In this document: positions 20,976-27,481 of the stretch, one piece after another
Numbering within the stretch: position 1 is the stretch's first letter
How the letters are laid out: each line of letters starts with the position of its first letter
Source: an uncultured Chlamydiae bacterium
GTDB taxonomy: Bacteria; Chlamydiota; Chlamydiia; Chlamydiales; SM23-39
Direction of reading: 5' to 3'
Assembly (NCBI GenBank): GCA_963828125.1
Contig: CAWHDP010000002.1
Coordinates: 768,539-832,538 of the forward strand
Length of the DNA stretch: 64,000 bases
The notes under the pieces: model-generated
What the model was told of the DNA's origin: nothing
What the model saw: only the letters and a program-made list of their open reading frames with translations
The model's database searches: none
Made by a program: the position numbers and the translations under genes

Positions 20976-22247
20976 GTGAATCCCCTGTACCCAGGAGAAT
21001 TTGAGAGAGACAGACTCCCCTCCGCTTCTAACTCAAGAGAACTGCTTGACGTCAAGGAAATAAATAAGGGATCTTATTCTCGTTTAGAACTTATATTTCG
21101 CATGTCCTGTTGGATACAGATAGAACAATATTTCACTCAAAATGATCTTACGCATCTTTTACGAGCATCTCGAAAGATTTTCAATAAGACTTGCGCAAAA
21201 TTTTTAGATAAATTGGACGCTTCATATCCAATCCTAAATGGTTTATACTCAAATATACAGAAAAAATCTTCAAAAGAATCGCTCATCGTAACAAGATGGA
21301 GAAGTCTAGCCGAAGGACTGAGGCAAGACAGAGAAAAGATGCGTGAGATTGGTTCTCATCGAAAAATCGATCTGTCTCAACTTCCTCCCATATATACCAG
21401 CGCTACACGAGCTGGTTCTGCGCAAATGTTCTTTGCCAGCACCTTAAGAGATCTTCATTGGACAGCTTACGTTGGGAATGTCCTTGTCCGCCGCTCTCCC
21501 CCTCTCTGTTGCGATGATCTGTTATGTCGAACCAAAATGCTCTTTGAAACAAACCGAGTTTCGCTTGCCAACACTCTAGAAAGAATAGACAATATAGTGG
21601 CTCTTCACAGAGAGGCTATGGACGCCTTGCGCAAGGCATGCGCAAATAAAGACTGTCAACATATTAAATTTTTGATCGATGGAATTAGAATAGATGTCAA
21701 TAGTCCGCCATGCACTGAGCTATTTTTAAAGATATGTGCAAACCGCGACCCCTTCCTCATTGATTTGTTTATCCAAAAAGGGATTAGCCTCATGCATATT
21801 GATATTTTTTCTCTGGATACTATTCACTTGATCCAATTACTGGATTTGGGTATTGACATCGACTCCGCAGTCATCCAAAGATTGTGTGGACAAAGGTATG
21901 ATCTTGCAGTTATTTTATACTTATATGGCTATTTAGATGATACTATAACTGCAAATATAAGTGATAATTTCGGAACTTTTATGAATTTTAATAACCTAAA
22001 ACAGATTCGCCGGGATGCAACCACTACTCTTCAGCTGTCATTGGAGCGAATTTCTCGTCCACAGCGAATCTCTCTTTGTCGTCTCTGCATATCGTCTATT
22101 ACCAACGCTTCATTGGACGAATTTTGCAAGCAACTGCGCACACACAACATCACGATCAACACACACAGACATCGAAGACTGCAGAGGGAAAGGGAGAGGG
22201 AAAGAGAGAGGATCCAAGGCCACAACTATCGAGGCGCTTTGGCATAA
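20976..22247 (+). CDS. Hypothetical eukaryote-like protein (ankyrin-like repeats, weak F-box-like N-terminal segment); the 3' end appears replaced by low-complexity sequence and an IS remnant
   Basis: ALRKACANKDCQHIKFLIDGIRIDVNSP..LFLKICANRDPFLIDLFIQKGISL looks ankyrin-like. IEQYFTQNDLTHLLRASRKIF is weakly F-box-like. The C-terminus is the low-complexity RLQRERERERER, encoded by a GA-rich tract. Visibly A+T-rich. Confidence 0.5.
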   Translation: MNPLYPGEFERDRLPSASNSRELLDVKEINKGSYSRLELIFRMSCWIQIEQYFTQNDLTHLLRASRKIFNKTCAKFLDKLDASYPILNGLYSNIQKKSSKESLIVTRWRSLAEGLRQDREKMREIGSHRKIDLSQLPPIYTSATRAGSAQMFFASTLRDLHWTAYVGNVLVRRSPPLCCDDLLCRTKMLFETNRVSLANTLERIDNIVALHREAMDALRKACANKDCQHIKFLIDGIRIDVNSPPCTELFLKICANRDPFLIDLFIQKGISLMHIDIFSLDTIHLIQLLDLGIDIDSAVIQRLCGQRYDLAVILYLYGYLDDTITANISDNFGTFMNFNNLKQIRRDATTTLQLSLERISRPQRISLCRLCISSITNASLDEFCKQLRTHNITINTHRHRRLQRERERERERIQGHNYRGALA

Positions 22248-22540
22248 TCTCTGCCCCCGTAACAGTGATCTTAGACAACGCGAGATACCAGCGATGCTAC
22301 GTTGCAGAAAAGGCTGCGCACATGTTCAACATAGAACTCCTGTACCTCCCTCCGTACTCTCCCAATTTGAATTTGATTGAGCGTGCATGGAAATTCATCA
22401 AGAAAAAAGCGCTTGTGAATCGCTCTTTTGACAGCTTTCAATCGTTTCAGATGGCTATTAGTGACTGCATAAAGAAGTTCCCCACTGACTATGCGCGAGA
22501 GCTAGACACGCTGATGACTTGGAATTTTCAGTCCTTCTAA
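22211..22540 (+). mobile_element. C-terminal ~105-aa remnant of an IS630-family DDE transposase
   Basis: VTVILDNARYQRC....ELLYLPPYSPNLNLIERAWKFIKKKAL is the conserved IS630/Tc1-like catalytic C-terminus (DNA....LPPYSP.LNPIE..W). No N-terminal two-thirds are present. Confidence 0.75.
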
Positions 22541-22633
22541 AATTCCAAGGCATTGACCGACTTAGGTATAACATGCTAAAACACAAAATGTTAAATAAAT
22601 TTTTCTCCCAACTTTATAGGAATATCAGGGTTT

Positions 22634-23096
22634 TTGCCAGAGTTCTCTAGCAAAAAATCGTTTGAACAGGTGTTGACGTCTACGGCAACGAAGATTCCGA
22701 CGATTTTAACGCAGAGATTTCATATCTCTTCACAGAATAAATTTGAAATCTTGGTGAACACCAATCATTCGTTAAATCGGCAAAGATTCTCAATTGCCCA
22801 TGAGCTTGCTCATTTTGTTCTCCACCAAGATCAAATAAAAAAATATGGAAGCTCTAAAAAGAGCAGCCGACCGCTCTGGCCCTACCTATTTCCCAGATAT
22901 TGAAAAAGAAGCGGATGAATTTAGAGGAGAGTTGCTTATCCCAGAGAAAATTCTTCGAGACAATTTTTCTGAGATTTTTAATCAACGGGGAGATAGCCTA
23001 CCCTTTCAAAAAATCCAATGTAAAGCTGGCTCCCTGGGTTTTTTCTGCTCTTCTGATTTTGATCCTATTCGAGCCCCTTTTACCCCACTTCGTTAA
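22634..23096 (+). pseudogene. ImmA/IrrE-family (DUF955) zinc metallopeptidase, split by a frameshift in an A7 run
   Basis: RQRFSIAHELAHFVLH (HExxH) lies in frame 1. EKEADEFRGELLIPEKIL (the conserved E.EAN.FA.ELL.P motif) lies in frame 2. The frames join if A7 (22837-22843) is read as A6. Confidence 0.65.
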
Positions 23097-23147
23097 CATG
23101 CCCTTTGTCGAAAAGGCTCTCTTTGCCGTAGTGATTGATGCAAAAGA

Positions 23148-23194
23148 CGCCTGAAGCCGGAATCGAACCGACGACCTTCGCATTACGAATGCTA
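23148..23194 (-). tRNA. tRNA-Thr(CGU)-like 3' fragment (anticodon arm to acceptor 3' strand), not a complete tRNA
   Basis: Minus strand: tagca-ttCGTaa-tgcga-aggtc-gtcgg-ttcgatt-ccggc-ttcaggc-g. It has a T-arm with a canonical TTCGATT loop and an anticodon loop with CGT. No matching 5' acceptor strand or D-arm lies upstream. Confidence 0.45.
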
Positions 23195-23407
23195 CCCCGC
23201 CCGGTAGAGCACGACACTTTAAGACACGTAACAACAACACTATCAAGCGCATAAATCAAAGCAGATTCTCGCCAAATGCGGCCACATGTTGCCAGTTTTT
23301 GTCCCCGATTGCAACTTTTTTGCAACTCCACATCCTTTTTTTCTGACGAGGTAAAAAAAATCTTGGGGAATAAGTTTTTACCGATTACAATCTGACCCCT
23401 TCAAGGA

Positions 23408-23644
23408 GTGCCACTCATGAGCTTGCAAACCATATCCATCTTGAAAACTGCATTGTTTTTTTTCATGGTTCTTTTCCCTTCGTATGTTTGCATACCTAAA
23501 GCAGTACGGTTCTGGGAAGAGTGGAAAAAAACAAACAAATTGGTGTTTTTATCACATGCGGTGACTTTTTTTATAGTGACTATATTTTTTTATGTTACAG
23601 CTTTACTGATCACAATTTTGGAAGTGTTGGGATATCATGCATAA
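23408..23644 (+). CDS. Small two-TM membrane protein (78 aa)
   Basis: The ORF follows AAGGAG and has two long hydrophobic segments. Its stop overlaps the start of the next ORF by 8 nt. A+T-rich region. Confidence 0.5.
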   Translation: MPLMSLQTISILKTALFFFMVLFPSYVCIPKAVRFWEEWKKTNKLVFLSHAVTFFIVTIFFYVTALLITILEVLGYHA

Positions 23645-26223: not shown

Positions 26224-26301
26224 GACAAATGGCGCAATAGCAGCGCAATACAAGACCGTAAGATGCTTTATCTTAGCGCATTAATTTTCGCCAAAAGGCC
26301 C

Positions 26302-26670
26302 TTAAGACATAAGAATATGAGATCGATCGTTTTGCGATGTGCTTGCAACAAGCTCTTTTGCAACCCCTCCGTCAACCAGAAAAATTTTTGAGAATGCGGC
26401 TTTTAAGACTTCATTTTGTTCTAAAATTCCTGTTAAAGCCTCGGAATAAAGAGAATCGTCCAGCAAAGGGTTATTGTTGATCAACACCAGCCATTTCTCC
26501 CCATTGAGGTGAGCAAGCTTCTCTCTTTTTTCCGACATTGCGACAAAGAGGCTGTATCGGGCTTGTTTGGATAAAGTAGCTTGCAGCACAGGATTGGGTG
26601 TTTGTAATGCTGCTCCAAGGATTTCTTTCACAGCAGAATACTCTTTTTTGCTCCCATAGAAATTTGTCAA
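26302..26670 (-). CDS. Hypothetical protein (122 aa)
   Basis: ORF track only; no motif recognised. It may be a fragment. Confidence 0.35.
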   Translation of the reverse strand: MTNFYGSKKEYSAVKEILGAALQTPNPVLQATLSKQARYSLFVAMSEKREKLAHLNGEKWLVLINNNPLLDDSLYSEALTGILEQNEVLKAAFSKIFLVDGGVAKELVASTSQNDRSHILMS

Positions 26671-26682
26671 TTTTGCTTCTAT

Positions 26683-26830
26683 ATGAAAAATGGGGATTTT
26701 ACTATTGTCGGTACTTATGGAAAATTCTATCCTTATTTTATGCGGAGGAGATAAAGGATCTCAGGGGCGTGATATCAAAAAAGCCAAAGAATATTGGCAG
26801 CTGTATAAGAATTCGCTCAAAAAGAAGTAG
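26683..26830 (+). pseudogene. Decayed RelE/ParE-superfamily 'addiction module killer' toxin (C-terminal part, frameshifted)
   Basis: The frame ending at TAG 26828-26830 reads MENSILILCGGDKGSQGRDIKKAKEYWQLYKN.., matching the conserved (V)ILLCGGDKSTQ..DI..A C-terminus of this toxin family. An upstream piece, MKNGDFTIVGTYGKF, is in another frame, and the N-terminal ~35 aa are missing. Confidence 0.55.
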
Positions 26831-26835
26831 GAAAT

Positions 26836-27153
26836 ATGGTGAAGGCAAAAAATTACAAAGAACATTTACTGAAACAGCTCCAGAAGCCTGAAGAGGCAGC
26901 AGCCTATCTGAACGCCGCTCTTCATGACGACGACCCACATGTGTTCTTGTTAGCCTTGCGCGATATTGCTGAGGCAAGAGGCGGTATGAGCTGGCTCGCT
27001 GATGAATCTGATTTGAATAGGGAAAGTCTGTATAGAACCCTTTCTTTAAGAGGCAATCCTCGCTTTTTCAATCTCCTTGCTGTGTTGGACGCAATTGGAT
27101 TGGAAATGACTATCCGCAGCAGACCCAATAATAAACGCTCTCGAACTTCCTAA
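26836..27153 (+). CDS. Addiction-module antidote protein (HigA-like/HTH, the family usually paired with the killer protein above)
   Basis: KNYKEHLLKQLQKPEEAAAYLNAAL.DDDP..FLLALRDIAEARGGMS.LA....LNRESLYRTLS..GNP.F..L..VL.A.GL matches the family almost motif for motif. Confidence 0.75.
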   Translation: MVKAKNYKEHLLKQLQKPEEAAAYLNAALHDDDPHVFLLALRDIAEARGGMSWLADESDLNRESLYRTLSLRGNPRFFNLLAVLDAIGLEMTIRSRPNNKRSRTS

Positions 27154-27217
27154 AAAGACCATTAATCACCAAACCAACCTTGAAGAACCTGAAGGCTGGG
27201 GTGTGACAAACTTTTGC

Positions 27218-27481
27218 TATACTGCGGCCACCCCAAAAGTATAATGGTGAAAATAAAGAAAAAACAATCCCAGCGGCAGAAGCTGCCGCAAACAAGGAGG
27301 CTGCTGAATTTCTTATTTCATCCAAAGATATCAATAATTTTATCTCCGAGACAAAACCATATTACTCTGAAAAATATCGATGAGAGAAAGGTGGGGAAAA
27401 CTGGCAGGGAACTTAAAAGAAACCGCCGTATGCGGCTTTCACGCTTGCCCAAATTCACACTTTTGGGGTGGCCGCAGTATA
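27218..27481. repeat. MITE-like unit: 21-bp terminal inverted repeats identical to the 18.5-kb palindrome arms, enclosing 222 nt
   Basis: tatactgcggccaccccaaaa (27218-27238) and ttttggggtggccgcagtata (27461-27481). The loop-like sequence cccaaattcacac (27448-27460) precedes the right arm. An internal small hairpin gcggcag-aa-gctgccgc is present. Confidence 0.7.

Follow-up and report, generated by a model that had tools for sequence, protein, structure and literature searches.

A probable composite, degenerating genomic islet in the lptG-M32 slot of an uncultured environmental chlamydia

Gene content of the lptG-M32 segment

We analyzed the region between lptG and the gene of an M32 peptidase (hereafter M32) in a 64,000-nt stretch of DNA (GenBank assembly GCA_963828125.1, contig CAWHDP010000002.1, positions 768,539 to 832,538), which we refer to as the window and which we denote 64 kb in length. 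The closest relatives of its M32 peptidase come from metagenome-assembled genomes (MAGs) labelled Chlamydiales, Parachlamydiales or Chlamydiota, with 68-82% identity, and the host of the window is an uncultured environmental chlamydia. Comparison loci are designated by L numbers. Nucleotide homology between the window and the related loci L083 and L084 ends at position 20880, the lptG stop, and restarts at position 27573, the M32 start; we therefore delimited the variable segment as positions 20881-27572 (~6.7 kb). The features located in this segment are the following:

20976..22247, plus strand: orf423, an apparently full-length open reading frame (ORF) of 423 aa
~22241-22540, plus strand: IS630-family transposase remnant, C-terminal quarter only
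22666..23018, plus strand: ImmA/IrrE (M78) peptidase pseudogene, residues 29-146 of a 179-aa protein, with the 5′ and 3′ ends lost
23019..23127, plus strand: remnant of the ~90-aa membrane partner of ImmA, about residues 40-73
23149..23192, minus strand: 44-nt 3′ fragment of tRNA-Thr(CGU), extending from the anticodon loop through the acceptor end and forming an attachment-site core
23193..23327, minus strand: arm of the attachment site, flanking the tRNA fragment on its island side and carrying two direct AGTTGCAA motifs
23408..24077, plus strand: A+T-rich membrane gene pair, apparently intact in both members, for a two-helix membrane protein (78 aa) and a signal-peptide/lipoprotein-like protein (146 aa)
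24198..24247, no strand assigned: near-perfect 50-nt hairpin (inverted repeat; -37.2 kcal/mol, z -7.7)
24250..24525, plus strand: weak candidate DUF4379 (treble-clef zinc finger) fragment
24586..26223, plus strand: intact prokaryotic Schlafen gene of 545 aa, with SLFN_AlbA_2, GHKL-type HATPase_c_4 and a C-terminal region
26302..26733, minus strand: what remains (~131 C-terminal aa) of a 272-aa gene that converges on the Schlafen gene
26726..26830, plus strand: RelE/ParE (HigB-like, upstrm_HI1419) toxin remnant, the last ~25 residues of the family model
26836..27153, plus strand: intact antidote gene (dnstrm_HI1420, HigA-like), 105 aa
27215..27484, no strand assigned: element like a miniature inverted-repeat transposable element (MITE), with terminal inverted repeats (24 nt, perfect, separated by 218 nt) and TA on both flanks

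A preliminary description of this DNA, read from the letters alone, had proposed a candidate decaying genomic island at positions 22211-27481 and listed ten items in it. Eight of them were verified by our searches: the IS630 remnant, the frameshifted ImmA/IrrE peptidase, the tRNA-Thr-like 3′ fragment, the A+T-rich two-gene membrane cassette, the 50-nt hairpin, the AlbA_2/HATPase_c_4 gene, the decayed killer toxin with its intact antidote gene and the MITE-like element. The zinc-ribbon fragment assigned to DUF4379 was below the Pfam threshold, and the supposed 122-aa orphan ORF belongs to a truncated 272-aa gene, of which it forms the tail. The left border had to be moved to position 20881, so that the segment also takes in orf423.

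Pfam was scanned in the three frames of the plus strand and PHROGs with the called ORFs, and minus-strand frames were inspected as ORFs. Defence systems were searched for with PADLOC 2.0, a release older than the description of prokaryotic Schlafens (pSlfn).

Borders and composition of the segment

The order lptF-lptG...M32 is kept in the chlamydial loci that we compared, which number at least eight among the matches listed in an M32-alignment search of genome contigs. Most of the matches listed in that search were non-chlamydial, and closer relatives were obtained by exact-protein look-ups. The three closest loci (L082, L083 and L084), whose M32 proteins are 76-81% identical to that of the window, have the arrangement lptF, lptG, a gene of ~280 aa, M32, 4HBT, rpsI, rplM and miaB. 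Seven more distant chlamydial loci retain lptF-lptG...M32 with the gap filled by other genes, which from translations read by eye, with no family scan, look PAP2-like, alanine-racemase-like, MurF-like and MORN-repeat. None of the islet genes of the window was present in the lptG-M32 slot of these 10 related loci. The opposite outcome named in the preliminary description, that is, the same gene order intact in distant relatives, was thus not seen in the relatives compared.

The ~280-aa gene is the ancestral occupant of the lptG-M32 slot and is unrelated to the islet genes of the window, in which no trace of it was found. It lies at the following positions:

L082, 455-1312
L083, 9162-10004
L084, 9184-10038
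L007, 2241-3008

In the close relatives, this gene encodes a conserved signal-peptide protein with the motif NIRNSDPNLGPNFGF and belongs to no Pfam family. The possibility that orf423 is a diverged form of it was considered and rejected; no islet protein of the window, orf423 included, matched the loci carrying the ~280-aa gene. The lptG-M32 interval is a naturally variable slot.

The variable segment has a G+C content of 0.428, compared with 0.501, and is the lowest among 230 sliding 6.66-kb windows of the 64 kb (mean 0.494, standard deviation 0.025). Likewise, the G+C content at third codon positions (GC3) is 0.37-0.45 in the genes of the segment and 0.48-0.69 in the flanking genes. The proposal of an acquired and decaying island is supported by the absence of the segment from the orthologous slot in all relatives examined, by its deviant G+C content, by the genuine tRNA-Thr attachment relic that it contains and by the truncation or frameshifting of most of its genes.

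Two further assemblies, from essentially the same organism as the window, share part of the region with 99.97% identity. One of them, L001 (NCBI MAG contig JBAVKL010000023.1), begins at position 22444 of the window, inside the IS630 remnant, and is unbroken over positions 22444-39096, crossing the MITE into M32. The other, L085 (a Logan contig), begins at position 27500, just beyond the MITE; both assemblies therefore break at repeats. Since the ImmA frameshifts and all junctions from position 22444 into M32 are reproduced in L001, they are not assembly errors.

The tRNA-Thr(CGU) fragment and its attachment-site arm

ARAGORN predicted no tRNA in the 64-kb window, and an Rfam search at E values up to 1 found no tRNA in positions 20500-28000. 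We validated the tRNA fragment by an exact-match search of metagenomes with a 28-nt pattern of its T-arm and acceptor end. This pattern retrieved 12 metagenome contigs, in 10 of which it falls on the 3′ terminus of an intact tRNA-Thr(CGU) gene; no match was found in IMG/VR. All 44 nt of the fragment are shared with the tRNA-Thr(CGU) gene of L102, and 10 others are 95-100% identical to it.

The arm comprises the 135 nt located 5′ of the fragment in the tRNA orientation. Together, fragment and arm are 72% identical over 179 nt to positions 8977-9155 of L101, which form the distal junction of a 3.1-kb decayed islet. In L101, an intact tRNA-Thr(CGU) gene is located at positions 5994-6066 and a displaced 3′ fragment at positions 9112-9155. 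The T-arm of the intact L101 tRNA gene differs from that of the displaced fragment, as expected when an integrating element supplies a new 3′ half. L101 and L106 also carry the AGTTGCAA motif of the arm downstream of their tRNA-Thr, and the hairpin of the window has it in inverted pairs, with copies in its arms at positions 24205 and 24233; a link between this motif and tRNA-Thr sites is suggestive.

Because of the orientation of the fragment, the interior of its element lies to the right (position 23193 onward), with ImmA and IS630 outside. Integration at a secondary site was considered as the source of the fragment and rejected; the full 44-nt block adjoins the arm, which fits a true tRNA junction as well as an unrecombined attP, the attachment site of the element itself.

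Two tRNA-Thr(CGU) 3′ fragments, located 2.6 kb apart (424-468 and 3098-3143), were observed in L099, a contig with no intact tRNA. They suggest serial integrations at tRNA-Thr(CGU), which, since this contig carries two fragments, looks like a recurrent integration site in such organisms. In the interior of the L101 islet, we observed a TetR-like ORF, a rhodanese-like ORF and a transposase-like fragment (translations read by eye), as well as a truncated Schlafen gene; 151-nt tandem repeats lie just outside it (L101 9150-9618).

State of the genes to the right of the junction

The Schlafen gene is intact, with Pfam scores of 54.4 and 49 bits; the Slfn domain accounts for the former, against a threshold of 25.3. 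Its Ex4ExK motif, EHERIEFK, spans residues 17-24 and is kept in 118 of 120 homologues. The ratio of nonsynonymous to synonymous substitution rates (dN/dS) is ~0.04 relative to L086, and at nonsynonymous sites it has diverged from relatives (0.12-0.14) about as much as M32 has (0.13). The gene is thus under purifying selection, and its product is probably a tRNA-cleaving defence or regulatory nuclease.

Copies of the Schlafen gene were found at five other loci with 75-93% identity, and the truncated copy of L101 has 56% amino acid identity. Their locations are:

L086: by rpoD and a DinG-like helicase gene
L087 (also L088): in a tRNA-Leu island with an integrase
L089: between a NUDIX gene and fumarase
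L107: with the 272-aa gene
L101: in the tRNA-Thr islet

Where checked (L086-L089), DNA homology was restricted to the gene and ~60 bp on either side. No close relative of the Schlafen protein, and none of ImmA, was found in IMG/VR; in the plasmid and phage collections, the Schlafen relatives were distant only, with at most 35% and 49% identity. Its only PDB relative is 3LMM, an uncharacterised structural-genomics entry. The gene is conserved like housekeeping genes while hopping among at least six loci; it is therefore conceivable, though doubtful, that the Schlafen protein of these obligate intracellular bacteria acts as an effector, either immune or tRNA-targeting.

An imperfect inverted repeat is located just after the Schlafen stop (window 26226-26254) and is kept by the gene in L107 (2151-2209) and L086 (11609-11653). 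A 29-nt piece of it is also found in L101 (10471-10499, 97% identity), away from the Schlafen remnant. This repeat may be a small repeated or terminator element.

L107 has an intact 272-aa gene facing the Schlafen gene in convergent orientation, and residues 142-272 of its product match positions 26733-26341 of the window with 64% identity. DNA homology extends over window positions 25283-26690 and L107 positions 1240-2630 (76%). The dN/dS of 0.11 in the remnant is a mark of past constraint. The remnants of the 272-aa gene and of the toxin meet at ~26726-26733, a junction that fits a single deletion taking the 5′ ends of two divergent genes.

The toxin remnant matches positions 69-93 of the 95 positions of TIGR02683 (E 5.8e-7), with 29.8 bits compared with a whole-protein cut-off of 62.85. 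The adjacent antidote matches positions 9-88 of the 89 positions of TIGR02684 with 69.3 bits (cut-off 53.7) and PF21716 with an E value of 6e-19; no relative was found in PDB. In L101, the antidote is 82.7% identical and likewise an orphan, with ~12 toxin codons remaining, and the loss of the L101 toxin is an independent truncation of the same toxin gene. The proportion of nonsynonymous differences (pN) of the antidote is 0.106, with synonymous sites saturated. The antidote gene is intact and under purifying selection without a working toxin, and has probably been kept as a repressor or an anti-addiction factor.

The membrane pair has a G+C content of 0.35-0.39 and no family match in Pfam, NCBIfam or PHROGs. 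Its homologue in L090, with 57% and 55% amino acid identity, is located upstream of ImmA there and downstream in the window. As for the candidate DUF4379 fragment, the match (E 0.0095) reached 16.6 bits compared with a cut-off of 24.5 and covered 21 of the 56 model positions, only after joining two frames; the long-frame Pfam scan gave no DUF4379 match.

The MITE measures ~266 bp. Its repeat motif occurs three times in the window, compared with zero expected by chance, and a second, TA-flanked and internally deleted copy of 50 nt is located at positions 18494-18543, which makes two copies within the 64 kb. The possibility that the MITE derives from the adjacent IS630 remnant was rejected, since its ends differ from the sequence past the transposase stop. 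The 50-nt copy, just upstream of lptF, is a perfect hairpin of both MITE repeats with 8 nt between them (-40 kcal/mol, z -8.8), which could also serve as a terminator. In the same neighborhood, a minus-strand ORF (window 17880-18458) has a weak, below-threshold F-box-like match (E 0.008). F-box-like proteins are often proposed as eukaryote-directed effectors in amoeba-associated bacteria.

State of the genes to the left of the junction

The ImmA pseudogene has a HELAH (HExxH) motif, and joining its frames improves the E value of the Peptidase_M78 match from 7e-12 to 1.8e-16. Compared with the intact 179-aa protein P0241 of locus L090, residues 1-28 are gone and two frameshifts are present, with tblastn matches in three frames; at the nucleotide level, positions 22667-23017 are 90% identical to L090. 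A 212-nt deletion removed the ImmA C-terminus and the first ~38 codons of the next gene, fusing both. The remnant of that next gene, omitted from the preliminary description, matches L090 positions 3840-3948 (88%).

Intact ImmA genes overlap a ~90-aa membrane gene by 4 nt in L091, L093 and L094. This conserved two-gene cassette of chlamydial genomes consists of a 177-179-aa ImmA/IrrE protein without a helix-turn-helix (HTH) domain and a ~90-aa membrane protein without a family. It is located at the following positions:

L091, 10001-10806
L093, 10001-10806
L094, 384-1189
L090, 3191-3956

The loci are unrelated in two chlamydial genomes (L091 and L093), and 38 homologues of the ImmA peptidase of the cassette were found. 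It had been noted that no partner XRE repressor is visible beside ImmA, which is true, yet since the intact relatives are paired with the small membrane protein, the partner of this ImmA clade is that protein and not an XRE repressor. The cassette could be an undescribed toxin-antitoxin-like or regulatory pair. At 2 kb from the intact ImmA cassette of L090, we observed a polymorphic-toxin pair formed by an Ntox50 toxin domain gene and a MafI2 immunity gene (L090 98-1047).

The ImmA segment has a pN of 0 and a proportion of synonymous differences (pS) of 0.55, a mark of past constraint. Because this signature persists in the remnants of both ImmA and the 272-aa gene, the inactivation of these pseudogenes is recent relative to the divergence from their nearest sequenced homologues, which are themselves distant.

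The IS630 remnant matches positions 222-297 of the 299 positions of NF033545 in NCBIfam (E 2.9e-22) and Pfam DDE_3 (E 4e-16). No second end and no second copy were found in the window, and neither a complete DDE transposase nor both terminal repeats are present.

Further to the left, orf423 (G+C 0.41, GC3 0.38) has only 8 homologues among 1.84 billion representative proteins, the best full-length ones with 31-33% identity, and no Pfam, NCBIfam, PADLOC or PHROGs family. It is a near-orphan of the variable segment, not recognisably mobile or defence-related. A purine-rich GA repeat (window 22183-22215) encodes its RERERERE tail, directly before the IS630 breakpoint.

Origin of the islet

Based on these observations, we consider it likely that the segment at positions 20881-27572 is a composite degenerating genomic islet produced by several independent events, and not a single element. 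Its modules, i.e., the ImmA cassette, the membrane pair, the Schlafen gene with the 272-aa gene and the HigB/HigA-like pair, recur separately at other loci in related chlamydial contigs. In L101, the orphan antidote and a truncated Schlafen gene are found together with the tRNA-Thr junction.

In the sequence of events that we propose, a piece of a tRNA-Thr(CGU)-targeting integrative element would have arrived first, of which the distal junction (the 44-nt fragment and its arm) remains. The cargo to the right of this junction would comprise the membrane pair, the Schlafen gene with its convergent neighbor and the HigB/HigA-like pair. To the left, a different cassette, formed by ImmA and the small membrane protein, would later have been clipped by the IS630 insertion and deletions, followed by the insertion of the MITE at the right edge. 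Finally, deletions may have taken the ancestral ~280-aa gene and the 5′ halves of two divergent genes, those of the toxin and of the 272-aa protein, along with the integrase and the end that bore the intact tRNA. As these deletions would have removed the integrase and the intact-tRNA end, the islet could no longer excise, and the genes that survive intact would be those useful or harmless on their own.

Several points weigh against this proposal. The search for an intact tRNA-Thr(CGU) gene and an integrase, suggested in the preliminary description, found neither within the 64-kb window: no integrase or recombinase domain was detected in the plus-strand frames or the called ORFs, and tblastn with the integrase of L087 gave nothing. 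Integration at lptG-M32 is consequently hypothetical, and the arrival of a tRNA-linked piece in a slot without a tRNA is a difficulty for the proposal. Additionally, the AGTTGCAA motif occurs only seven times in the 64 kb, four of them in the segment, which are few occurrences. The join from lptG and orf423 to IS630 is present in the window's own assembly only, since the other assembly breaks at position 22444. Finally, the contigs L090, L099, L101, L106 and L107 were judged to be chlamydial from their gene content and similarity to the window only.

The wreck of a single prophage or integrative and conjugative element (ICE), integrated through tRNA-Thr and with all the genes of the segment as its decayed cargo, is an unlikely source. 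The tRNA-Thr attachment relic with its arm and the uniformly low G+C content would agree with it, and ImmA-type peptidases, toxin-antitoxin (TA) modules and Schlafen genes are common cargo of prophages and ICEs; the ImmA, antidote and Schlafen genes all match PHROGs families and gave the only PHROGs matches. Nevertheless, the plus-strand Pfam frames and PHROGs on ORFs revealed no domain for a capsid, tail, terminase, replication or integrase function, nor did these scans, none of which was aimed at conjugation proteins, give any conjugation-protein match; Pfam domains of a relaxase, a coupling protein or type IV secretion were likewise absent from the plus-strand frames and the ORFs. The orientation of the fragment places ImmA and IS630 outside its element, neither ImmA nor the Schlafen protein has close relatives in IMG/VR, and the modules are found singly at different loci in relatives. 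The earlier assignment to an integrated prophage or ICE is thus not upheld, and the same applies to the suggestion of a defence island, for which PADLOC gave partial single-protein matches (capP/RmrA-like for ImmA; pAgo-associated models, i.e., those associated with prokaryotic Argonautes, for Schlafen) and no complete system. This result also makes it quite improbable that the segment is a small working defence or regulatory locus, in which the Schlafen gene, the antidote and the membrane pair would be functional and the debris incidental. Such a locus is consistent with the intact Schlafen catalytic motif and low dN/dS, with the capacity of prokaryotic Schlafens to defend against phages (PMC13056530) and with the conservation of the orphan antidote in L101. 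The genes are unlinked in relatives, except in the three-module neighborhood of L101, and among the seven systems tested, published defence is limited to DUF262 and Ig-like fusions (PMC13056530). Moreover, a working locus is compatible with a mosaic islet rather than an alternative to it.

An assembly chimera, in which the IS630 and MITE repeats joined unrelated contigs, is very improbable. The breaks of the other assemblies in the IS630 remnant and past the MITE could be read in its favor, but L001 spans positions 22444-39096 in one piece, and the lptF-lptG...M32-4HBT-rpsI synteny equals that of the relatives, which a random misjoin would not reproduce. An ancestral chlamydial locus that was never acquired is hardly credible at all: only the position inside a conserved gene neighborhood speaks for it, compared with the absence of every segment gene from the slot of the 10 related loci, the deviant composition and the mobile-element remnants. 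Returning to the composite islet, it is conceivable, though doubtful, that Schlafen and antitoxin genes are shuttled among environmental chlamydiae by small integrative elements of an undescribed family, of which the tRNA-Thr fragment, the AGTTGCAA arm and the recurring cargo would be the marks.

The locus is a well-resolved case of an obligate intracellular bacterium gaining and then eroding foreign DNA. Its value lies in its exact borders, in genes scored as intact or broken against intact relatives and in an attachment relic tied to tRNA-Thr islets. It may be used in practice as a marker of the variable lptG-M32 slot in Chlamydiota, and the two survivors of the decay, the prokaryotic Schlafen gene and the orphan HigA-like antidote, are possibly worth testing. 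The picture of chlamydial genome dynamics is unchanged by it, and its novelty is modest, because islands, insertion sequence (IS) elements and TA modules are already documented in environmental chlamydiae.

Comparison with known systems

Genomic islands, transposases, integrases and TA modules have been published for Protochlamydia, Waddlia and Estrella (PMC548262, PMC2878342, PMC4333871). The statement in the preliminary description that such an island is unusual territory for Chlamydiae therefore holds for the pathogenic Chlamydiaceae only, since islands, TA modules and IS elements are documented in those three genera. The islet resembles Pam100G of Protochlamydia amoebophila UWE25 (PMC548262) in being foreign chromosomal DNA whose G+C content deviates and which contains a short direct-repeat relic as well as genes of mobile elements. 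Pam100G measures 100 kb and has an F-like transfer system (PMC548262), whereas the islet measures 6.7 kb, with no transfer, replication or integrase genes found. Unlike Pam100G, the islet is not beside an intact tRNA gene and is a mosaic of several elements.

Some prokaryotic Schlafens are phage-defence tRNases, and two of the seven Schlafen systems tested, the DUF262 and Ig-like fusions, gave defence (PMC13056530). Fusions of Slfn with a histidine kinase, without or with HTH, are the commonest pSlfn architecture (34% plus 19%), although results for histidine-kinase-type fusions are not stated in that study (PMC13056530). The gene of the window is like this class in combining SLFN_AlbA_2, with its Ex4(E/D)xK motif, and a GHKL/histidine-kinase-type ATPase fold (PMC13056530). 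It differs from the pSlfn defence systems in that its host is an obligate intracellular bacterium and its surroundings contain no recognised defence gene, and defence is unreported for the fusion class.

The toxin and antidote share their gene order, with the toxin upstream, and their families with the HI1419/HI1420 type II TA pair (TIGR02683/TIGR02684); unlike that pair, the toxin of the window is cut to its last ~25 residues (~12 codons in L101) and the antidote is an orphan. The ImmA remnant resembles ImmA/ImmR of ICEBs1 and CapP/CapH of the cyclic-oligonucleotide-based antiphage signalling system (CBASS) in its M78 domain and HExxH motif, and its best PADLOC match is capP. In contrast to both pairs, its intact relatives are paired with a ~90-aa membrane protein without HTH, and the window copy is a pseudogene. 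The MITE is like those of the IS630/Tc1-mariner type in its small size, perfect terminal inverted repeats, TA flanks and internally deleted second copy; unlike them, its ends mismatch the end of the IS630 remnant, and no autonomous parent was identified.

Among the sublocation classes reportedly described by Williams in 2002, there are elements that recombine in the tRNA anticodon loop, with an attP that carries the 3′ part of the tRNA. The window holds one junction, without an integrase and a second junction, and differs in this from such elements. Nevertheless, it shares with them a 44-nt fragment that extends from the anticodon loop to the acceptor end and an adjacent arm with repeated short motifs, and L101, in which the 3′ half of the intact tRNA gene differs from the displaced native fragment, fits the pattern of anticodon-loop elements.

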